The notes under the pieces were generated by a model. That model was given only the letters and a program-made list of their open reading frames with translations. It made no database searches and was not told the DNA's origin. Of a stretch of 64,000 nucleotides of DNA, positions 2,475 to 62,323 are shown piece after piece. The position numbers were made by a program, and so were the translations under genes. Within the stretch, counting starts at the first letter, position 1. The number at the start of each line of letters is the position of its first letter. The stretch is taken from NCBI GenBank assembly GCA_964016885.1, contig CAXHJY010001213.1:11312-75311 (forward strand). The letters run 5' to 3'. This DNA comes from Eledone cirrhosa. Its lineage: Eukaryota.

Positions 2475-5400
2475 GATAGCAACTAACAGTGCTGCGATCG
2501 AATGTGGCTTTTTAGCCCAGCCAATGATCTAAAATGTCTTGCACAGAGTCGGCAACCAAAACATTTACTGGGAATAGTCGGCTGTGGTTGGAGTTCGTGT
2601 ACTTTTGCATGTCGCTTGAGTCCTCCTGCTGATTTACATTCTCTACCACATGTTTGGCAAGCATGATGAGTAGCATCTCCAACAGCAGCCTGGTAGTCAA
2701 CCACTGGTCTTACTTTATGACTGCGAAGATGACTTTCGAGTCCAGCTTTGCTTAGGCAGAGTCTCGCACAGACGCTGCATGTCAGAAACATAGGAGGACC
2801 CTCGCCGTCTGGAAGTGCAACAGCAATACCCTTCCTCACGTCCCGCTTTACTTTCTCGTGTGCGATTCGAGATGCCTCAAAGGCAACTTTTCCCTCATAT
2901 ACAGTCTTTCTCCATTTATTACGATCAGCAGCAATATTTTCCCATGTATCAGCAGAGATGTTAGCGTCTTTCAGAGAGGCCTTCAAGGAATCCTTATACC
3001 TCTTTTTTGGTTTATGTGGCGGTCGTTTTCCTTTAACCAACTCTCCATAGAAGAGTTGTTTTGGTATTCTAGAATCCTTCATCCTGGCAAGGTGACCACT
3101 CCAACGGAGTCGCTGCTTAAGCACAAGAGCTTCTATACTGTCACACATAGAGCTTTCCAAAATCTCGACATCACTGATGTGGTCCCTCCAGCGAACGCCA
3201 TGTATCCGTCTGAGACACATCTGATGGAAACGCTCCAATTGCTTAAGGTGGCGTCGATATGTGACCCAGGTCTCGCAGGCATAAAGAAGACAAGAGAGTA
3301 CACATGCCCTGTACACCTTTACCTTTGTCCTCCTGCATATGTCTCGCCGACCCCAGAGTCGCCTTTCTAGCTTTCCGAAAGCATCACTTGCTTTCCTAAT
3401 CCTAAGTGAGATCTCACTGTCAAGGTTGCCGTATCGATTGACAGTGCTTCCCAGGTAGACAAACTGATCAACCACTCCAAGTCGTTTGCCATACACATAG
3501 ATGTTTGGTTCAGTGTACTGCCTACCAGGTGCAGGTTGGTACATGACGACGGTTTTCTTGAGACTGACAGTCAAACCCAGGGCAGTGCAAGCGTCAGAAA
3601 ATACATTCAAAATGTGCTGCATATCACTCTCTGTGTGCGCTACAAGATCGCAATCATCTGCATACAAGAGGTCTCTTATGACTGATGTAAATACTTTTGT
3701 CTTCGCAGCAAAGCGCCTGATGTTAAATATGCTGCCTGAGGTTCGATATCGGATGTAAACACCATGCTCGCAATTCCTGAATGCAATACAGAAAACCATT
3801 GCAAAGTATATGGCAAACAGGGTCGGTGCTGGAATATCCCCCTGTTTCACTCCATTTTTTACTGAGATAGGCTCCGACATGCTACCTCCGACATTAACCC
3901 AAGCCTTCATGTCGTCATGGAAAGACCTAACTAAAGCAAGGAACTTATCAGGGCAACCAAGTTTCTGGAGAACCTTCCATAATGCATCTCTGTTGACAGT
4001 ATCGAAAGCCTTTGTCAGATCGACAAAAACCTGATACAGATCCAAGCCCTGTTCAATGCACTTCTCCTGGAGCTGTCTAGCTGAGAAGATCATATCAGTA
4101 GTGCCGCGTCCAACACGAAAACCAGATTGACTTTCAGGAAGGACACAATCTGCAATGTGTGTCAGCAGACGGTCCAGAAGCACCCTACATAAAACTTTCC
4201 CCACGACAGAAAGCAATGATATACCTCTGTAGTTCCCACAATCATTCCTGTTACCCTTTCCCTTGTACAAGACCACCATTACTGCATCTCTCCAGTCCTC
4301 AGGCACGGATTCATTAGCCCATATCCTTCCAAACAGAGAGTGAAGATGTTGCAGGAGTCTCTCACCACCATATTGTAGGAGCTCAGCATGTATGCCATCC
4401 ATACCTGGAGATCTTCCACTGTTCAGCTTCGAAATAGCCACTGCAACCTCCACAAGTGTCGGAGGTTCTGCGAGAGCTACTTTCACAGGACTTTCCGGAA
4501 TGAGATTGAGGAAATCTTCACTGACGACAGACGGCTGATTCAAAAGATCATCAAAGTGCTCTCGCCACCTTCGTAGAATTCCCTGTGAGTCACGAAGAAG
4601 TTCTTTGCCATCCTTGCTGCGAATCGGTGTCACCAGAGAAGAAGACGGTCCATAAACCTCACGCAAGAGACTGTACAACAGCTTTGTGTTATTGCAATCA
4701 GACGCAGTTTGTATCTCACCAGCCTTCTCACTCCACCACTGATCCTTCATCTGAGAAAGACTCCGCCTAACACGTGATTTTACATCCCTGAGCTCCTCAT
4801 GCAACGTATTCCTCTCCTGTGGTCTTGCCGTCAAGTAGCGTGACAGAGCGCGCCTCTTATCAGCCAACAAGTCATCTATATGCACATCCTTCTCATCAAA
4901 CCAGTCCTGATGTTTTCTCTGCACCAATCCCAGAACACGTCTGCCTACATCATAAACCGACTTTTTAAGAGTCGGCCAATCCTCACCAAGATCTGCAGCC
5001 TGCATCTCTTCTTCCAATGTCCTCTTCACATTTTTATCCTTAAGACGAGCAGCATTCAATCTTTTGGGCAGGGCAACACCAGGAGCCCGGATTTTACGTT
5101 TGGTGATTAGATTCACTTTTGCGCGTACCAGGCGGTGGTCCGTCCAGCACTCAGCTCCACGAAGAACACGAACACACTGCACATCCTGTCTGTCACGCAT
5201 CCTGACTAGGACGTAGTCCAAAAGATGCCATTCCTTAGATGCAGGATGCATCCATGTGGTCTTGAATTTGTTCTTTTGTTGGAACATGGTGCTGGTAACA
5301 CACAGATCCAGCTCCTCACACATCTGCAGCAAGAGCATACCATTGCTGTTACACTTTCCCACCCCATGCCTTCCGATTACATTCCATGTGTTAAAATCCC

Positions 5401-6067
5401 TACCCACTCTAGCATTAAAGTCACCAAGCACGATGACTTTGTCTGCCTGAGGGATATTTCTTAAAACACCTTTCAAGGCATGGTAAAAGGACAGTTTTTC
5501 TTCATCGACAGAATTCATAGTTGGAGCATACACACTCACCAGGGTAGCATATCTTCCCTTGTCCAGCGGAACTCTCATGGACATAAGACGCTCACTAATC
5601 CCCACTGGGAATTCTTCCAATTTATTCACCAGTACAGTCTTAACAGCAAATCCCACCCCAGCCTCTCTTCTGGTTCCTTCATCTCTTCCTTTCCAGAAGA
5701 ATGTATATTCTCCACAAAATTCCGTAAGATGACCATCTCCAGCTAACCTCGTCTCAGACAAAGCCACGATGTCAAGATCGTAACGTCGAAGCTCCTTCGC
5801 AACAAGAGCGGTCCTTCGTTCAGGACGCTCCAAAGAATCCCTGTCAAGCAGCGTCCGTACGTTCCAGCAGCCAAGACTAAATGCCCTGTTTGGCTCTATT
5901 ACAATGGCACGATGACGGGCGGGCCCAGGTTGTGATAACTTGGGGCCCCTGCCCTTATTGCCAATGATCTCTTTTGTTCCAGAACCCAAATTGGCAATTA
6001 TCTCGTTTACATTGTTCTGGAACATCATTGAATTGGAAAAAAAAAAAAAAAAAAAAAAGTAATAATA

Positions 6068-6102
<35 letters not shown>

Positions 6103-11189: not shown

Positions 11190-12085
11190 GACTATTAATT
11201 ATAGGTTAACTAAATTAAAAATAGTTAATATATTGATTTCTAAGGTGTATACTACTTAGGTTTATAATATTTAAAGCGGAATTTTGAAGTTAAACAGTAG
11301 TAGAGTATTAATTATAGCATAACTAAATTAAAAATATTAACATTATGGTATCAATTTTAGGAAATGAATTTAGTAATAGGGAAAACCAAATCAAGTATTT
11401 CATCGGTAGTAGCATATAAATTATAGGTTAACTAAACTAAAAATTATATATTAATTTCTATAGTATATGTTAATTAGGTTTATAATAATTAAAGCAGATT
11501 TTGTATTTTATCTATAGTAGAATATAATTATAGGTTAACAAAAATTAAAATTAATCTATATATTTATTTGTAAAGAATATATTAATTAGGTATATATTTA
11601 AAAGTTTTTCTCAGTTTATGATTACATGATATTCTGCAATCCATCTGTATTAGAATTTTAATTTTAAGCTAACTAAATTAAAATTATAGGTTAATTAAAT
11701 TAAAATTAATTTATAAATTAATTTCTAAATTGTACATTAATTAGGTTTATAATATTAAAAAGTATTTCTCTGTTATTGATTACACGATATTTTGTTATAT
11801 TTCATCTGTAAAGGAATTTTAATAAAAGGTTAAATAAACTAAAATTAATCTATAAATTAATTTCCAAAGTATATATTAATTATGTTAATAATATTTAAAA
11901 GTTTTTCACAATTTATGATTACACAATATTTTTTTAATCTCATCTGTAGTAGAATTTTAATTAAATTAAAGTTATAGGTTAACTACATTTAAATTAAATT
12001 ATATATTAATTTCTAAAATATATATTATTAATTAGGTTTATAATATTTAAATGTTTTTCTCAGTTTATGATTACACGATATAATT
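11190..12085 (-). repeat. Degenerate tandem repeats (about 110-150 bp) of the PLE ORF 3' end
   Basis: Recurring blocks TAATTAGGTTTATAATATTTAAA..TTTTCTCAGTTTATGATTACA and TTATAGGTTAACTAAATTAAAA match the last codons ([15 protein letters not shown]) of the adjacent ORF. Confidence 0.75.
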
Positions 12086-12760
12086 AATTCCTGTCGCTTA
12101 TTTAATAGGATATCCTTAGATTTCATTATTTCAAATAGTTCTTGGGAACACAATCTACATTCATTTCTATTATTTTGATAAGGGGTGGCTCTTTTGAGCA
12201 CACTCCAGGTCATATCATATTCTATATTCTTATTTCTATAACTATTAATTTTTTCTGCTAGAGATGTTGTATTAGCCAGTGCGGCATTTTTAAAAAAACT
12301 ATGTTTGTGGGTATTAAACCTTACCTTAAAATTGTTAGAAGTAGCTCCGATATATGAGCAAATAGAATCTTTAGTTTTAACTTTACATTTATAAACTATG
12401 TTGTTAACAAGACAATTTCCTTTTAATGGGCAGTTTGCTTTGTTTCTACAGTTACAACCTTTCGTTAATTCTGTATTTGAGGAGATATTATGGTTAGTTT
12501 GATGTATTGGTGGTATACTTATGGTTTTTTTACATTTATATGCATTATAGGCACTTATATTTTGTTTTATGTTTTTGGTTGTTGAGTATGAGAATTTAAC
12601 TGTTGATCTATTTAAGATTTGATGGTATTTGTGGTTTGGCGGGAAGTTTTTCTCTAGGATATAAACAAATTTTTTAGCAATATTATCCTTAATTTGTAAA
12701 TTAAATGGAGCATTATACCAAGTAACTCGTCTATTACGGTTTCTATGTTGTTTATTATTT
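12028..12760 (-). CDS. Penelope-like (Naiad-type) linker plus GIY-YIG endonuclease, 5'-truncated
   Basis: [41 protein letters not shown]...[31 protein letters not shown]. Homologous to 61274-62323. The N-terminus in the ORF track is a microsatellite artefact. Confidence 0.9.
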
Positions 12761-12823
12761 TTATAGGTTATACATACATATATATATATACATATATATA
12801 TACATATATATATATATACATAC

Positions 12824-12861
<38 letters not shown>

Positions 12862-13113: not shown

Positions 13114-13168
<55 letters not shown>

Positions 13169-13170
13169 CA

Positions 13171-15035
13171 TATAGACATAGAATATTCGAAAATATTCTG
13201 TATGTTTATAATAAACATTTTGAAGACCTAATCGCTATAGAATAGAATACGTCACGTATTACAATTAGATTCTCGATAAAAGCAAGGGAAGTAATCTACG
13301 CGTTTCATTCTCGTTAGAAATCATCAGGACTACATATCCAGTGCTTTTATCGAGAATGACACAGCTAGAGACTTATAGAATACTTAGCTGTGTACAGGAA
13401 CTGGTTTGAAAGAGCGGTTGCCGGTCCGGCAGAAATTAGAAATTGGAATAAATGCTCTGAAATAGCGATATATATGTGAATATAGACATAGAATATTCGA
13501 AAATATTCTGTATGTTTATAATAAACATTTTGAAGACCTAATCGCTATAGAATAGAATACGTCACGTATTACAATTAGATTCTCGATAAAAGCAAGGGAA
13601 GTAATCTACGCGTTTCATTCTCGTTAGAAATCATCAGGACTACATATCCAGTGCTTTTATCGAGAATGACACAGCTAGAGACTTATAGAATACTTAGCTG
13701 TGTACAGGAACTGGTTTGAAAGAGCGGTTGCCGGTCCGGCAGAAATTAGAAATTGGAATAAATGCTCTGAAATAGCGATATATATGTGAATATAGACATA
13801 GAATATTCGAAAATATTCTGTATGTTTATAATAAACATTTTGAAGACCTAATCGCTATAGAATAGAATACGTCACGTATTACAATTAGATTCTCGATAAA
13901 AGCAAGGGAAGTAATCTACGCGTTTCATTCTCGTTAGAAATCATCAGGACTACATATCCAGTGCTTTTATCGAGAATGACACAGCTAGAGACTTATAGAA
14001 TACTTAGCTGTGTACAGGAACTGGTTTGAAAGAGCGGTTGCCGGTCCGGCAGAAATTAGAAATTGGAATAAATGCTCTGAAATAGCGATATATATGTGAA
14101 TATAGACATAGAATATTCGAAAATATTCTGTATGTTTATAATAAACATTTTGAAGACCTAATCGCTATAGAATAGAATACGTCACGTATTACAATTAGAT
14201 TCTCGATAAAAGCAAGGGAAGTAATCTACGCGTTTCATTCTCGTTAGAAATCATCAGGACTACATATCCAGTGCTTTTATCGAGAATGACACAGCTAGAG
14301 ACTTATAGAATACTTAGCTGTGTACAGGAACTGGTTTGAAAGAGCGGTTGCCGGTCCGGCAGAAATTAGAAATTGGAATAAATGCTCTGAAATAGCGATA
14401 TATATGTGAATATAGACATAGAATATTCGAAAATATTCTGTATGTTTATAATAAACATTTTGAAGACCTAATCGCTATAGAATAGAATACGTCACGTATT
14501 ACAATTAGATTCTCGATAAAAGCAAGGGAAGTAATCTACGCGTTTCATTCTCGTTAGAAATCATCAGGACTACATATCCAGTGCTTTTATCGAGAATGAC
14601 ACAGCTAGAGACTTATAGAATACTTAGCTGTGTACAGGAACTGGTTTGAAAGAGCGGTTGCCGGTCCGGCAGAAATTAGAAATTGGAATAAATGCTCTGA
14701 AATAGCGATATATATGTGAATATAGACATAGAATATTCGAAAATATTCTGTATGTTTATAATAAACATTTTGAAGACCTAATCGCTATAGAATAGAATAC
14801 GTCACGTATTACAATTAGATTCTCGATAAAAGCAAGGGAAGTAATCTACGCGTTTCATTCTCGTTAGAAATCATCAGGACTACATATCCAGTGCTTTTAT
14901 CGAGAATGACACAGCTAGAGACTTATAGAATACTTAGCTGTGTACAGGAACTGGTTTGAAAGAGCGGTTGCCGGTCCGGCAGAAATTAGAAATTGGAATA
15001 AATGCTCTGAAATAGCGATATATATGTGAATATAG
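13171..15035 (-). repeat. Tandem array of 6 x 310-bp units, each with a minus-strand hammerhead
   Basis: TATAGACATAGAATATTCG recurs at 13171, 13481, 13791, 14101, 14411 and 14721. The first HHR is at 13269-13357 (-). Confidence 0.97.
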
Positions 15036-17931
15036 ATTAGGTCTTCAAAATGTTTATTATAAACATACAGAATATTTTCGAATATTCTATGTCTATATTC
15101 ACATATATATCGCTATTTCAGAGCATTTATTCCAATTTCTAATTTCTGCCGGACCGGCAACCGCTCTTTCAAACCAGTTCCTGTACACAGCTAAGTATTC
15201 TATAAGTCTCTAGCTGTGTCATTCTCGATAAAAGCACTGGATATGTAGTCCTGATGATTTCTAACGAGAATGAAACGCGTAGATTACTTCCCTTGCTTTT
15301 ATCGAGAATCTAATTGTAATACGTGACGTATTCTATTCTATAGCGATTAGGTCTTCAAAATGTTTATTATAAACATACAGAATATTTTCGAATATTCTAT
15401 GTCTATATTCACATATATATCGCTATTTCAGAGCATTTATTCCAATTTCTAATTTCTGCCGGACCGGCAACCGCTCTTTCAAACCAGTTCCTGTACACAG
15501 CTAAGTATTCTATAAGTCTCTAGCTGTGTCATTCTCGATAAAAGCACTGGATATGTAGTCCTGATGATTTCTAACGAGAATGAAACGCGTAGATTACTTC
15601 CCTTGCTTTTATCGAGAATCTAATTGTAATACGTGACGTATTCTATTCTATAGCGATTAGGTCTTCAAAATGTTTATTATAAACATACAGAATATTTTCG
15701 AATATTCTATGTCTATATTCACATATATATCGCTATTTCAGAGCATTTATTCCAATTTCTAATTTCTGCCGGACCGGCAACCGCTCTTTCAAACCAGTTC
15801 CTGTACACAGCTAAGTATTCTATAAGTCTCTAGCTGTGTCATTCTCGATAAAAGCACTGGATATGTAGTCCTGATGATTTCTAACGAGAATGAAACGCGT
15901 AGATTACTTCCCTTGCTTTTATCGAGAATCTAATTGTAATACGTGACGTATTCTATTCTATAGCGATTAGGTCTTCAAAATGTTTATTATAAACATACAG
16001 AATATTTTCGAATATTCTATGTCTATATTCACATATATATCGCTATTTCAGAGCATTTATTCCAATTTCTAATTTCTGCCGGACCGGCAACCGCTCTTTC
16101 AAACCAGTTCCTGTACACAGCTAAGTATTCTATAAGTCTCTAGCTGTGTCATTCTCGATAAAAGCACTGGATATGTAGTCCTGATGATTTCTAACGAGAA
16201 TGAAACGCGTAGATTACTTCCCTTGCTTTTATCGAGAATCTAATTGTAATACGTGACGTATTCTATTCTATAGCGATTAGGTCTTCAAAATGTTTATTAT
16301 AAACATACAGAATATTTTCGAATATTCTATGTCTATATTCACATATATATCGCTATTTCAGAGCATTTATTCCAATTTCTAATTTCTGCCGGACCGGCAA
16401 CCGCTCTTTCAAACCAGTTCCTGTACACAGCTAAGTATTCTATAAGTCTCTAGCTGTGTCATTCTCGATAAAAGCACTGGATATGTAGTCCTGATGATTT
16501 CTAACGAGAATGAAACGCGTAGATTACTTCCCTTGCTTTTATCGAGAATCTAATTGTAATACGTGACGTATTCTATTCTATAGCGATTAGGTCTTCAAAA
16601 TGTTTATTATAAACATACAGAATATTTTCGAATATTCTATGTCTATATTCACATATATATCGCTATTTCAGAGCATTTATTCCAATTTCTAATTTCTGCC
16701 GGACCGGCAACCGCTCTTTCAAACCAGTTCCTGTACACAGCTAAGTATTCTATAAGTCTCTAGCTGTGTCATTCTCGATAAAAGCACTGGATATGTAGTC
16801 CTGATGATTTCTAACGAGAATGAAACGCGTAGATTACTTCCCTTGCTTTTATCGAGAATCTAATTGTAATACGTGACGTATTCTATTCTATAGCGATTAG
16901 GTCTTCAAAATGTTTATTATAAACATACAGAATATTTTCGAATATTCTATGTCTATATTCACATATATATCGCTATTTCAGAGCATTTATTCCAATTTCT
17001 AATTTCTGCCGGACCGGCAACCGCTCTTTCAAACCAGTTCCTGTACACAGCTAAGTATTCTATAAGTCTCTAGCTGTGTCATTCTCGATAAAAGCACTGG
17101 ATATGTAGTCCTGATGATTTCTAACGAGAATGAAACGCGTAGATTACTTCCCTTGCTTTTATCGAGAATCTAATTGTAATACGTGACGTATTCTATTCTA
17201 TAGCGATTAGGTCTTCAAAATGTTTATTATAAACATACAGAATATTTTCGAATATTCTATGTCTATATTCACATATATATCGCTATTTCAGAGCATTTAT
17301 TCCAATTTCTAATTTCTGCCGGACCGGCAACCGCTCTTTCAAACCAGTTCCTGTACACAGCTAAGTATTCTATAAGTCTCTAGCTGTGTCATTCTCGATA
17401 AAAGCACTGGATATGTAGTCCTGATGATTTCTAACGAGAATGAAACGCGTAGATTACTTCCCTTGCTTTTATCGAGAATCTAATTGTAATACGTGACGTA
17501 TTCTATTCTATAGCGATTAGGTCTTCAAAATGTTTATTATAAACATACAGAATATTTTCGAATATTCTATGTCTATATTCACATATATATCGCTATTTCA
17601 GAGCATTTATTCCAATTTCTAATTTCTGCCGGACCGGCAACCGCTCTTTCAAACCAGTTCCTGTACACAGCTAAGTATTCTATAAGTCTCTAGCTGTGTC
17701 ATTCTCGATAAAAGCACTGGATATGTAGTCCTGATGATTTCTAACGAGAATGAAACGCGTAGATTACTTCCCTTGCTTTTATCGAGAATCTAATTGTAAT
17801 ACGTGACGTATTCTATTCTATAGCGATTAGGTCTTCAAAATGTTTATTATAAACATACAGAATATTTTCGAATATTCTATGTCTATATTCACATATATAT
17901 CGCTATTTCAGAGCATTTATTCCAATTTCTA
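15035..17931 (+). repeat. Tandem array of 9.3 x the same 310-bp unit, inverted, each with a plus-strand hammerhead
   Basis: GATTAGGTCTTC recurs at 15035, 15345 and every 310 bp to 17825. It is the reverse complement of the left array and ends in (TA)n. Confidence 0.97.
15221..15309 (+). ncRNA. Type I hammerhead of the 310-bp unit (representative of 15 copies)
   Basis: Distal stem I ATTCTCGATAAAAGCA/TGCTTTTATCGAGAAT (16 bp), internal loop, proximal stem I GTAGTC/GATTAC, CTGATGA (15251-15257), stem II TTCT-AACG-AGAA, GAAA (15272-15275), palindromic CGCG, cleavage after GTA (15281). Confidence 0.92.
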
Positions 17932-31779: not shown

Positions 31780-32261
<482 letters not shown>

Positions 32262-32289
32262 ATCAAAAGATGGTTAAAAGAGTTCCATG

Positions 32290-32360
32290 TATTTTATTAT
32301 GCGCATTTCAAAAACAAATATCATCATGCAATAACATTTGTGTTTTCATCAGATAAAATA
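32290..32360 (-). ncRNA. Type I hammerhead (left arm)
   Basis: Reverse complement of 32418-32488. Confidence 0.85.
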
Positions 32361-32417
32361 GGAAGACATGATATGATGGTTAAAAAAGTGTTTTTTAACC
32401 TTCATAACATGTCTTCC

Positions 32418-32488
32418 TATTTTATCTGATGAAAACACAAATGTTATTGCATGATGATATTTGTTTTTGAAATGCGCATAATAAAATA
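32418..32488 (+). ncRNA. Type I hammerhead (right arm)
   Basis: TATTTTAT CTGATGA [stem II of about 36 nt] GAAA TGCGCA TA ATAAAATA: 8-bp stem I, palindromic stem III, AUA site. Confidence 0.85.
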
Positions 32489-32734
32489 CATGGAACTCTT
32501 TTAACCATCTTTTGATCTTATATATTATGTATACTCCAGTCCTACAAACTGTAGAGTGCTTCTTATCCGATATCTGCATTGCTTTATTGTACTACAATAA
32601 AACTCACCTCCTACATATATATATATATGAAAAATATGGGTGAGAAGAATACTGCTGGTTGCACATGGATAACATGTTATAAAATGAGTCCCTCATCAGT
32701 GATTTACCAAACGATCATGGGTATTTCATCGCAT

Positions 32735-43155: not shown

Positions 43156-43210
<55 letters not shown>

Positions 43211-43219
<9 letters not shown>

Positions 43220-43864
43220 GAAAAGTATAGAAATTGTTGTAGCGAGAAGCTAACAGTATTCCATAACATATATGTGACTATAGCGTCAAAATGGGAAAAT
43301 AGTTAACATAAGATATGGGAAAAATAATTCAGACTCAATTCAAAAGGAATCAGGATATAGATTTATCCAACAGAATTTAGAGAAATCCAGGGAAAAATCA
43401 ATAAAGCCTTAACTCATGATAAAACAAAGTCTAAAGTACTCAACCTTCAATTTGGGACAACTTCAAATGCTCTGTATAGTCTTGAAAAGACTATTTCACG
43501 AAAACTTTCAGTGGAGATGGTCACGGTTGGATTTCGTTCCTCAGCAGAGCTCAACATGGTAACCAAGGTCTCACTGGTAATATGCCAAAAAGGGAATTTA
43601 AAAGCAGGCTAGTTTAACATCATGCGTGGTTATTAAAATAAACGCACATGTGTAAAAACAAGGCTGGAGACGTCAGAATGAGACAAATGTTTGTTTACAT
43701 GAAACAACAGTCAAAAACATTCCGAAAGAAAACTCTACAAAAGGAGTTCAGCAAAAAGCAATATCATCGCGGTTTTTTTCCCCAAAAAAATACCGCGATT
43801 AGTCACAAATAATTTAAGCACTCTAAGAAATAAATCCGAGTATATATATATATATAAATGAAAA

Positions 43865-43869
<5 letters not shown>
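43211..43869 (-). mobile_element. 640-bp non-coding HHR-bearing monomer with terminal direct repeat (retrozyme-like)
   Basis: TATATAAATGAAAAGTATA at 43211 and 43851; flanked by (TA)n; contains the HHR at 43469-43550. Confidence 0.75.
43469..43550 (-). ncRNA. Canonical type I hammerhead with full stem III
   Basis: Minus strand: GCTCTG CTGAGGA ACGAAA..TTTCGT GAAA TAGTC-TTTTCAA-GACTA TA CAGAGC. Confidence 0.9.
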
Positions 43870-43933
<64 letters not shown>

Positions 43934-43961
43934 ATCAAAAGATGGTTAAAAGAGTTCCATG

Positions 43962-44032
43962 TATTTTATTATGCGCATTTCAAAAACAAATATCATCATG
44001 CAATAATATTTGTGTTTTCATCAGATAAAATA
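43962..44032 (-). ncRNA. Type I hammerhead, same family as 32290/32418
   Basis: 43930-44062 is nearly identical to the left arm of the 32256 palindrome but is not folded back. Confidence 0.85.
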
Positions 44033-44150
44033 GGAAGACATGATATGAAGGTTAAAAAACACTTGTGAATAGTGCAGTTTTAAATCAACATATCAGTTTT
44101 AAATCAACATATTTGCATTGCTTTATTGTACTACAATAAAACTCACCTCC

Positions 44151-44186
<36 letters not shown>

Positions 44187-44534
44187 AGTTAATATAAATT
44201 AATATATGATAAACACATAAGTGTTTGTATTGCAAAAGACGAAGTTAGCTAGAATGAAATAAACTAATTAAAATAAATATAGTTTGTCCGTCTCGATATA
44301 AATCAATAAAAACAAGCTCATATTGGCAAAAGTCGTGATTCCTGGACAAATTTAAATTTCAAAATCCAAACCTGCTCCGTAGATGAATTTGAACTTCAAA
44401 ACCTAAATATGTTTCGTAACGGTGGTATAAAAAGTGAAATATTCAAATCTTCTGTGCTTATCAACAGGAATCCAGAAAAATTAGTACATTTCACCTCCAA
44501 AAATTTTGCAGGACTATATATATATATAAAACAA

Positions 44535-45176
44535 TCGCTAAAACAATCTCTATACCTCTCATTTATATTTATACTCGGATTCTTTTCCTGGAGTGCTTAA
44601 ACTATCTGTGACTAATCCCGGTTTTTTTCATAAAAACTGTGATAATTATTGCTATTTTTGCTGAACTCCTTTTGTGGAGTTTTTTTCAGAATGTATTTGA
44701 CTGCTATTTCTTGTAAATAAACATTCACTTACATCCAGACGTCACTAGCCCCGTTTTTTCCCCATGTGCTTTTTCATAACTACACATGATGGCGAACTAG
44801 CCAGTTTTAGAATTCCCTTTTTCGGATTATAATACTGTGAGAGCCCTGGTTTTCTGTTGAGCTCTGCTGATGAATGAAATCCAATCGTGACCATCTCCAC
44901 TTTAAGACTATACAGAGCATTTGTTGTTATTCCAAATTGAAGGATAAGTGTTTTAAACTTTATTTTATCATGAGTTAAAGGTCTATTGATTTTTCCCTGG
45001 ATTGCACTAAATTCTGTGGATGAATTTGTATCCTGATTCTCTTTTGAGATGAGTTTGAATTATTTTTCCTAAATCTTACGTTAACTACTTTTCCCATCTT
45101 GACGTTATAGTCGCATATATGTTATAGAATGCTGTTAGCTTCTCGCTAAAACAATCTCTATACCTCTCATTTATAT
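44535..45176 (+). mobile_element. 608-bp diverged inverted relative of 43211-43869, with terminal direct repeat and partly deleted HHR
   Basis: TCGCTAAAACAATCTCTATACCTCTCATTTATAT at 44535 and 45143. The HHR remnant at 44861-44918 keeps GCTCTG CTGATGA and TA CAGAGC but has lost the stem II 3' strand, the GAAA and the stem III 5' strand. Confidence 0.75.
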
Positions 45177-45539
45177 ATATATATATATATATATACATAT
45201 GTATATGTACACACACACACGCACATACACACACACATATATATATATATTAAAACAAAACACATTTCCTCGAGATCTGCACACAATCTCTTCATCTTGA
45301 GTGTCAAAAAGATGGAAAGAGTTGACAAAGAACGCCACAACAGATGACACAGTGAACAAGCAATAAGGAAGCAATTTTCTTGAAAGCAAAACTGGACTAT
45401 CATCAACAATGTTTGATCAAAGACGATAACGAAGTTAGATATATACACACAGCACGTACACATACACACACGAACACACAAACATAAAGACACGCATACA
45501 CACACAGATACACATACGCAAACAAATGTAGACACACAC

Positions 45540-59460: not shown

Positions 59461-59561
59461 GTGGTGGTGGTGGTGGTGGTGGTGGTGGAGATCAGACCTG
59501 AGAGTACGTGAATTATTTAAGGACGTAAGAATGAAAACTAAAGTTTAAATATTTATTTATT

Positions 59562-62323
59562 ATGGCTAAGCCTTGTTCCCTTGTGGTCCTACGTGCGTAC
59601 TCACGAGGCAAGACTGGTGATCCTGTGAGTGCGCAGGTGAAAGTTTACTTGCCTTTATCTCTGAAAAATATTCCCACCCCCTCTAAGAATACTTACCTAA
59701 AACTACTGATAGCTAGTGTTAACTCCTTTGTAAAATGGATTAGATGGCGTGCGTTTCACTACGATAGTAATAAGAATAGGAAGGACCCCAGGAATAGAAC
59801 ACATTTTAATAAATACGGCTTCAAAACTTATAAGAGCCCACCACACAACATACTATTAGATAGTTTCGAAGGTGACTTACTCTCTCTGGTCAAAAATGTT
59901 AGGTTTAGGCTAAATATTAGACATAGAAACAATAGTAATTTTGATAAATTCCAGTCCAGACTTAAAAATATTGTTAAGGGTTTCGGTGAGAATAAGTCCA
60001 TTCTGGTCCCGGCAGATAAGACTAAGAATCTATACTCCATGGACTATAGTACATACCGCGATTTTATTTATAAAGAGTTATTTAGAAACTATAAAAAACT
60101 ACGCTTGAGAATTTGAACCACATCAATAGTGAGGGCCTTAGAATAGTCTCTGACCTCGGACTCGATAAGTATACCCAGCCATATTACCCTCGATAACCGA
60201 GATTCACACTTAAGGACCATAAGGTTGATTTTATTAGTAACCCCTCAGTTAGACTTATCTGTCCTTCTAAGTCGGATATAACCATTATCAGTAAAAAAAT
60301 CCTTGACCTTATTATACCAGATGTTAGGGATAAGGTTAATTTTAACCTATGGGGGAACACTAGGGAAGTTATAGATTGGTTCTCTGGGATTAATAGACTT
60401 GAATCTAATAAGTTTATCCAATTCGATATTGATGCCTACTACACATCAATTTCACCCATCCTCCTCAATAAAGCCTTAATGTTGGCCATGAGAGTGTCCA
60501 GCCTTACACGATCGCAGGTAGATATTATACTAGCAGCCCGTAAAACTATTATTAAATTTGAGGACACTTTTTGGACCCGTAAAAACACGCCCAATAATTT
60601 CGACGTTACAATGGGTTCGAGTGATTCGGCCCAGGTTACTGATCTTGTTGGGTTGTTCCTCCTTAATGAACTATACGCTACCTTCCCGCACCTTATAGGC
60701 GGACTATATCGTGATGATGCATTGTTTGTAATTAACTCTAGTACCAACAATGTAGAACTTAATAAGAAGAAGCTTTATAAGTTTTTTAAAAGCTACAACC
60801 TTTCAATCACGATAGATAGAAATGATAGAGCGGTTAACTTTTTAGATGTGACTTTGGACTTGGCCACTAATAGTTTTAAACCCTTCCATAAGCCTAATGA
60901 AATCCTTTCTTATGTTAGCCCCAATTCTAACCACCCTAAGTCTATGATAAACTCTATAATTAAGGGCGTTTCTAATAGGATTTCCACACTATCTAAGGAC
61001 ATAGGAACTTTTAATGAACATGCGGAGTACTACAATAATGCCCTAGCAAATTCAGGTCACTCTAGTAAAATAAATTATAATAATAGTAACTTTAGAAAGT
61101 CTCCGCTTACTCTTAATAATAATAACATTATATCACATAACATCGCCATGAATGGGAGTAGCAAACATAGTAACCGTAGAACTTATATAGGAGTATCTGA
61201 ACCCACCCATAAGTTATCCCACCGGACTCGTAATAGCAAATATAATACCTCTAGGAGATAAGTCGAGCCCCCTGTGCGCTCACGCATTGGAGTTGGTTTG
61301 GCTGGATCTTATTCTAGTAATGTTGCTCCTACTGATCCTATCATTGGCCTTAATCCTCTTGTAGGGATTCCGGACAACAGCGGATCTACTGGAGGTAGAA
61401 ACTATAATAGGCATAACGAAATTATGGCTGATTCTATGAATGTGGCCTCAACTATTCCCGATAGTAACCCTAGTCTCGACGGTGGGACATTTGATAGAGG
61501 TAGGGTCGATAAGAATAAAAATAAAAATAGAAGGCGATTAAATACTTATTTCAACCCGCCATATAACCAGGATGTATCAACTAATATCCCTAGGTCTTTC
61601 TTCACTATCTTAGAGAAAAATTTCCCCCCTTCTCACAAATACCATGGTATTTTTAATAAAAATGTTATTAAACTCTCATTCTCTACCACCCCTAATATTA
61701 GTTCTCATTTAGCTAGCACTAATAATAGGAAAATTAGGGATGGATTCTCCTCTCTACATACTACTAGTCTGAATGCATCGGACAATGCTTTACCACCAGA
61801 ACAGTCCTTATCTAATAGAGGTCCTACGTGTAATACATCACCACTCGAGCCAACCAATAACACCCGGAAGTGCAATTGTAGAGTGAGTGCTAACTGCCCT
61901 CTAAACGGTAACTGCCTTTCTAAGAACATTGTCTACGCTTGCGAGGTTATAACTAATTCCTCTAAAAGAACGTATATAGGATCTACTTCAAACACTTTTA
62001 AGACTAGGTTTAACTCTCATATCTCTAACTTCAAACATGTTAGGTTTAAGAATTCTACCTCTCTAGCGCATTATATCTGGGATCTTAAGGGAGCTTATAT
62101 ACCATATAGCCTTAACTGGTGTTTAGTAGCACGATCTAACCACCTTTCTGCACATAGTAAGTTTTGTAATCTCTGTATACTTGAGACACACTCTATTATT
62201 TTCTCTAGCGTACCCTTACTGAATAGAAAGTCTGAGATATTCTCTTCTTGCCCCCATGCCATTTCTAATTCTTATTTTTATTATAAACCCAAATGTTCTA
62301 GTAGTACAAATTGTACCCATTAG
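59562..62323 (+). pseudogene. Near full-length Penelope-like element (Naiad-type) ORF: RT plus C-terminal GIY-YIG, with three lesions
   Basis: SLKNIPTP, VPADKTKNLY, TLKDHK, RLICPSKS, QFDIDAYYTSI, FDVTMGSSDSA, GLYRDDAL, NFLDVTLDL, SNHP, FNPPYN, CNCR..CPLNGNCL, IVY..YIG, CNLC..E, LNRKSE. Frameshift in an A6 run near 60098; in-frame TAA at 60194 and 61259. Confidence 0.92.

Follow-up and report, generated by a model that had tools for sequence, protein, structure and literature searches.

Results

The two hammerhead-bearing copies at positions 43211-45176 of the window (the whole 64,000-nt stretch of Eledone cirrhosa DNA analyzed here) very probably represent an abundant, non-coding hammerhead repeat family with a unit of about 630 nt and a Penelope-type mode of insertion. 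Both are independent insertions, and we lean toward a Penelope-type reverse transcriptase (RT) working on a predicted circular RNA as their source. The locus itself is an ordinary one for the host genome, and the class of element is already known.

Two insertions in the window

The features to which we refer are the following.

43160-43216: (TA)n target tract into which copy 1 runs at its fixed 3′ end
43217-43840, minus strand: unit core of copy 1, 624 nt, subfamily A, non-coding
43217-43273, minus strand: 3′-terminal 57 nt of copy 1; its ATATAT edge is where the most frequent insertion product of the family ends
43469-43550, minus strand: complete type I hammerhead of copy 1, with predicted cleavage between 43475 and 43474
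43841-43856, minus strand: unit junction tract of copy 1, (TA)8
43857-43869, minus strand: redundant end of the preceding unit in copy 1, with 9 informative nt plus TATA microhomology
43870-43931: (TA)n tract flanking copy 1 on its 5′ side
43932-44515: spacer of unrelated repeats (a small hammerhead element of another family, a TA tract and another repeat)
44535-44563, plus strand: redundant end of the preceding unit in copy 2
44564-44573, plus strand: template-encoded subfamily B junction TATATTTATA in copy 2
44574-45171, plus strand: unit core of copy 2, 598 nt, subfamily B
44861-44918, plus strand: hammerhead remnant of copy 2, with a 24-nt deletion and predicted to be inactive
45172-45206: (TA)n target tract into which copy 2 runs at its fixed 3′ end
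59535-62320, plus strand, and 12031-12861, minus strand: copies of two Penelope families with Hydra-clade motifs

The terminal repeats that the first-pass annotation had reported are present as described, with 43211-43229 recurring at 43851-43869 in copy 1 and 44535-44568 at 45143-45176 in copy 2. In copy 1 the repeat is part of a 29-nt exact match with a period of 640, whose non-TA part is only the 9 nt CTTTTCATT on the minus strand; in copy 2 it is a 34-nt exact match with a period of 608. At a short AAACAA stretch duplicated at the 5′ joint of copy 2 (44528-44534), a slip may have occurred during joining. The copies were also said to have diverged and to point outward, and indeed they are 79% identical, with copy 1 on the minus and copy 2 on the plus strand.

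The spacer is made up of TA tracts, another repeat and a small hammerhead element from a different family that is present in very high copy number. A single two-armed event for the pair was considered and rejected, as the copies belong to different subfamilies and unrelated repeats separate them. The outward orientation is instead explained by two independent insertions of subfamilies that are 15.5% apart, and successive insertions into TA tracts are the best reading of the pair. A second outward pair elsewhere (L238, G000:C1:105595835-105599453) consists of two subfamily B copies 1.6 kb apart with other repeats between them; its arms are 95% alike, no closer than typical subfamily B copies.

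Several neighboring elements were observed alongside. The small hammerhead element occurs at 43932-44153 and 32258-32628, with a palindromic stem III and a ribozyme at 43962-44032 (minus strand); it has back-to-back arms with two different outer ends, its read depth greatly exceeds that of the 630-nt unit, and at one locus (L027) it abuts a 630-nt copy via a short microhomology without a TA tract. A two-armed array of near-identical copies of a 310-nt hammerhead unit occupies 13158-17931. The last 70 nt of the 630-nt unit and the ends of the 310-nt arms have short motifs in common (15/16 nt, E=0.013), which hints weakly that the two use one enzyme and that the 630-nt family has a second site which captures rather than primes. 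At 2486-6100 (minus strand), a 1,205-aa frame with an APE endonuclease, an RT and C2H2 fingers marks a LINE.

An abundant non-coding repeat family

Exact patterns of the family matched the 3.0-Gb host genome at least 1,569 times for the 3′ end, at least 540 times for the unit start and at least 353 times for the ribozyme, counts that are lower bounds, and the reversed control patterns of all three gave 0 matches. DNA searches scored 40 of 3,960 and 39 of 2,973 first-look candidates, and the 630-nt unit was a high-copy repeat in three contig sets of one sample. The terminal repeats are thus element sequence and not target-site duplications (TSDs), since the same family end closes every one of the exact 3′-end matches; true TSDs are unreadable inside TA tracts. 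The match at copy 1 consists of TA repeat at 20 of its 29 bases, which would suit TSDs or chance matches in TA-rich DNA, but the recurrence of this end against a control of 0, and its continuation into the family junction, leave such a reading with negligible probability.

The 84 full units fell into four subfamilies (43, 33, 6 and 2 units), with copy 1 in A and copy 2 in B and a mean divergence of 4.5% within A and 3.2% within B. The unit has a GC content of 0.33 and is non-coding, its longest stop-free frame being 91 aa; comparison of its frames with two Penelope proteins gave neither similarity nor a coding remnant. Low GC, the non-coding state and the absence of an LTR are features of retrozymes, as are tandem head-to-tail units of a few hundred bases, which here form arrays of 5-15 units. 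One old 15-unit array (L091-L093, G000:C1:82128433-82138412) contains recent dimer duplications and a short inverted end. The unit had been thought larger than known animal retrozymes; this does not hold, as 630 nt lies inside the published range of 51-972 bp (mean 650) given for ray-finned fish (preprint 10.64898/2026.07.22.740005). We conclude that the family is likely a new member of the metazoan non-LTR retrozymes, probably mobilized by Hydra-type Penelope elements. In the open-licence literature we found no hammerhead retrozyme reported from octopus or cephalopods and no insertion analysis of the kind made here; repeat libraries, the consensus files of Craig et al. and preprint tables may already contain the family.

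The hammerhead ribozyme

The copy 1 hammerhead consists of a 6-bp stem I, CUGAGGA, a 6-bp stem II, GAAA, an AUA triplet and a stem III of A-U plus 5 bp. It gave the expected structure when folded in isolation (z -2.3) and was the top of 5 motif matches in a scan of the window; the Rfam hammerhead models gave 0 matches at the gathering threshold or at E≤10. In copy 2, 24 nt are deleted after 44900, so that GAAA is lost along with the 3′ side of stem II and the 5′ side of stem III. This deletion is found in 1 of the 84 full units and accounts for the 608 period of copy 2, the family unit being about 630-636 nt. The description of the pair as two hammerhead monomers thus stands for copy 1, whose ribozyme is complete and lies mid-unit, but not for copy 2, whose ribozyme is broken.

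Across the family, the hammerhead core pattern is kept in 73 of the 84 full units, with 95.9% of cells paired, and one compensatory stem II pair, amounting to a single event, separates subfamilies. Between-subfamily differences affect 7 of 82 hammerhead columns versus 99 of 533 elsewhere in the unit (P=0.027), a more conserved ribozyme. When the whole unit was folded as a circle, the ribozyme was not the predicted structure, and stem I had probabilities of 0 and 0.28. Family units carry a predicted type I hammerhead, with self-cleavage predicted from motif and folding.

A fixed 3′ end and variable 5′ truncation

We compared insertions in two samples: all 75 distinct sites among the first 100 3′-end matches listed, and 66 insertions on contigs 1 and 2 among the first 100 ribozyme matches listed, with the 14 contig 3 matches excluded. 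The second, hammerhead-anchored sample was not selected for its end. Some sampled loci have near-identical flanks (L277/L278 and L167/L169) and may be duplications. Among the ribozyme matches listed, 65 of the 66 insertions close with the same end base followed by (TA)n, 34 cross a unit junction and 10 contain at least two units. The 5′ ends are truncated at lengths from 30 nt to about 15 units, and most family copies are shorter than one unit; among the 3′-end matches listed, 12 of 75 were at least one unit long by script, or 16 with four loci that continue past the matched end. Tail-only inserts are frequent, as an internal ATATAT 50-62 nt from the end is the stopping point of 31 of the 72 listed copies that reach the region. 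In 58 two-piece insertions (pieces below 30 nt uncounted) the redundancy ranged from 36 to 624 nt. The first-pass annotation had singled out copying "just past one round"; because the truncation lengths are continuous, this is one slice of a continuum and not a special class.

A partial tandem arrangement, a fixed 3′ end, 5′ truncation and a microsatellite target, all features of pLTRs, were thus found. As to a second 3′ end, upstream TA-like sites (two patterns) were used once each genome-wide versus at least 1,569 uses of the main end, and no inverted arm was present within 700 nt at the 75 loci among the matches listed. Unlike the two-armed 310-nt array in the window, the family is single-armed, with one 3′ end and no inverted arm nearby.

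Priming inside the unit junction

In subfamily A, the junction tract is (TA)6 in 12 of 17 junctions. In subfamily B, TATATTTATA was seen in every array junction displayed (overlapping loci), with one variant locus elsewhere, whereas the terminal ends of subfamily B become pure TA after 5 nt. This difference indicates that the junction is copied from the template, and therefore that copying begins inside the tract on a template that is continuous from unit end to unit start. The earlier proposal of priming inside the TA junction with read-through over the unit boundary is thus supported by the templated junctions and the fixed ends.

The template

Among the matches listed, 33 of the 75 position-ordered copies have the length needed to extend beyond the cleavage site, and none of the 33 stops within 5 nt of it; likewise, none of the 66 listed hammerhead-anchored insertions stops at the site. 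A cleaved linear monomer would have stopped all 33 and is therefore excluded as a simple template. The read-through proves no more than this, because uniform truncation predicts only 0.75 stops at the cleavage site.

The upstream and downstream repeats of one insertion belonged to the same subfamily in 55 of 56 cases. They had 67 of 283 rare alleles in common versus 3.2 expected from same-subfamily copies (56 of 252 with one old array removed), and the remaining 216 were not common to both repeats; 27 of 51 shared derived alleles occurred in no other sampled full unit. Only in 19 of 56 cases was the closest of all sampled copies the repeat's own partner. No recurrent difference was seen between last and penultimate units (at most 3/30 and 3/29), and A-to-G editing scars gave no consistent signal (46 versus 48 in A, 9 versus 27 in B). 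Periodicities of 2 and 3 units are present in the arrays; a circular monomer does not by itself produce them, and local duplication or multimeric templates would be their source.

The shared rare alleles, the equal last and penultimate units and the conserved ribozyme fit one RNA that is read repeatedly; the shared alleles would also follow from a homogeneous tandem parent, from template jumping on the same molecule or from local gene conversion. Counting against a circle are the small share of repeats whose own partner is the closest, the unshared rare alleles, the array periodicity, the missing editing signal and the ribozyme hidden in whole-unit folds. Taken together, the genomic data tilt toward a circular template, and once the family assignment is granted, a circle seems fairly likely in preference to an uncut tandem RNA.

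The terminal redundancy had been taken as the signature of a circle. It is not unique to one, because Penelope RT initiates internally and mainly on uncut RNA in vitro (PMC11167929), and an uncut tandem transcript gives the same shape. We therefore weighed a reading that keeps the family and the Penelope enzyme but takes as template a linear tandem RNA that is transcribed from a genomic multimer and left uncut, with internal priming at a junction and long arrays renewed by local tandem duplication. The purified Poseidon protein does start internally on its RNA, mostly uncut, and in the experiments described in that source the ribozyme is dispensable for the RT in vitro; multimers are common in the sampled insertions, the dimer and trimer periodicity matches local duplication, and the ribozyme is sequestered in whole-unit folds. 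A further point against the circle reading is that 8 of 9 predicted frog retrozymes gave no cleavage in vitro (preprint 10.64898/2026.07.22.740005). However, an aged tandem parent should have left fixed differences between last and penultimate units, private alleles are shared between the repeats of one insertion, and a conserved ribozyme would be expected to destroy such a template, so that we consider this reading rather unlikely. Improbable, in our view, is a cleaved linear monomer whose 5′ and 3′ ends the RT bridges by jumping from the former to the latter, which would mimic a circle. Template jumps have been invoked for Penelope elements (PMC3846280), and they too would yield shared private alleles, but the complete lack of stops at the cleavage site in both samples of listed matches and the absence of indel scars there in the aligned ribozymes would require exact jumps every time.

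Penelope elements as candidate partners

No unit adjoined a Penelope (RT plus GIY-YIG) ORF in samples of 75, 66 and 30 among the matches listed. Penelope protein fragments lay near 10 of the 75 and 11 of the 66 listed loci, none adjoining the unit; the four with same-strand upstream fragments (L320, L264, L250 and L233) proved on base-by-base reading to be separate insertions, and the other fragment loci were judged by distance and flank alone. All 30 unit starts (16 insertions) continued as the unit and not into an ORF. The first-pass annotation had named two findings that would count against it, locus-specific TSDs and constant attachment to a Penelope ORF as a pLTR; TSDs are rejected as above, and none of the sampled copies is such a pLTR. 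We accordingly regard it as very improbable that the unit derives as a solo pLTR from an autonomous Penelope family outside those sampled, even though our comparison covered only two of many Penelope families, frog retrozymes are described as homologous to pLTRs (preprint 10.64898/2026.07.22.740005) and Penelope fragments do lie near some loci: none of them touches the unit, and head-to-tail arrays without an ORF exist.

From ORFs in the window we found two abundant young Penelope families in the genome, with intact ORFs of 915 and 828 aa. Compared by motifs alone, both ORFs have the DKT, CxCx5C, CxxC and CxH motifs, with RWR instead of RWK; DKT, the CxCx5C linker, CxxC and CxH define the Hydra clade (PMC8557442). 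The candidate GIY-YIG is a weak match (E=0.0012, below the cut-off), and the elements are longer than the <3 kb typical of that clade. Besides TA ends, family 1 carries a ribozyme of its own, and its two outer ends lie about 100 nt apart. Neither family matched the unit DNA at E<0.05 in 44 and 34 loci, although family 2 loci may stop short of the 3′ end, and both were rejected as the parent of the unit. Because no DNA is shared, we infer a Penelope partner from target and layout only.

Discussion

The insertions would be accounted for by the following sequence of events. A genomic copy with two ribozymes would be transcribed and would self-cleave, and the monomer would be ligated. A Hydra-type Penelope protein would then nick a (TA)n tract and prime in the TA tract of the unit junction. 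The genome sequence itself shows the later steps: copying proceeds from one site, unbroken through the cleavage site and the unit boundary, and ends at varied places, often at TA-like microhomology; long arrays are afterward also duplicated locally. The idea that a Penelope RT turns ribozyme circles into more-than-unit DNA goes back to proposals of 2014 and 2020 (PMC4209133, PMC7229834). Our data lend genomic support to this circle-copying mechanism, whereas the in vitro study in PMC11167929, in what it describes, points to uncut linear RNA. The choice between circle and uncut RNA is directly testable, because the family provides a defined unit, priming site, junction and candidate enzymes.

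More tentatively, the family may be the record of a Hydra-type Penelope enzyme that reverse-transcribes a single ribozyme-made circle in rolling fashion and inserts in a single-armed way, the far (TA)n end being held at the TA-like site 57 nt upstream of the priming site, where it would capture cDNA, giving the tail-only inserts, and not prime a second arm. This is a possibility that we find doubtful as a whole; if true, the contrast with the two-armed families of the same genome would define what makes a Penelope insertion one-armed or two-armed.

Relation to known systems

Non-autonomous Chlamys elements such as MRC1, as described in PMC8557442, resemble the family in being non-coding dependants of Penelope with pLTR-like and head-to-tail microsatellite insertions. 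They are found in green algae, target (CA)n or (C)n and have 3′ similarity to a known autonomous family, for which we found no counterpart in the two Penelope families compared.

With the Hydra-clade and other EN+ Penelope-like elements, as presented by Craig et al. 2021 (PMC8557442), Cervera and de la Pena 2014 (PMC4209133) and Frangieh et al. 2024 (PMC11167929), the family has in common the partial tandem arrangement, a 3′ end that is fixed while the 5′ end varies, insertion at (TA)n, a hammerhead upstream of the RT start and internal initiation. In contrast to them, it lacks an ORF, its ribozyme lies 258 nt from the end (about 55 nt in theirs), it uses one 3′ end where they have two sites, and it has almost no inverted arms.

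Metazoan non-LTR retrozymes have been described by Cervera and de la Pena 2020 (PMC7229834) and by Li, Clavereau and Pollet 2026 (10.64898/2026.07.22.740005). Set against these accounts, our family, known from DNA alone and with no pLTR donor found, is distinguished in that its insertions have a visible polarity, target (TA)n and are primed at only one site, which lies in a templated TA junction; its ribozyme is set apart by a long 28-nt loop II, an A-U first pair in stem II, the AUA triplet and a non-palindromic 6-pair stem III. Like the retrozymes of those accounts, it is non-coding and low in GC, carries a type I hammerhead, ranges from monomers to multimers without LTRs at a size within theirs, and co-occurs with Penelope elements, with circle-templated copying as the proposed cycle.
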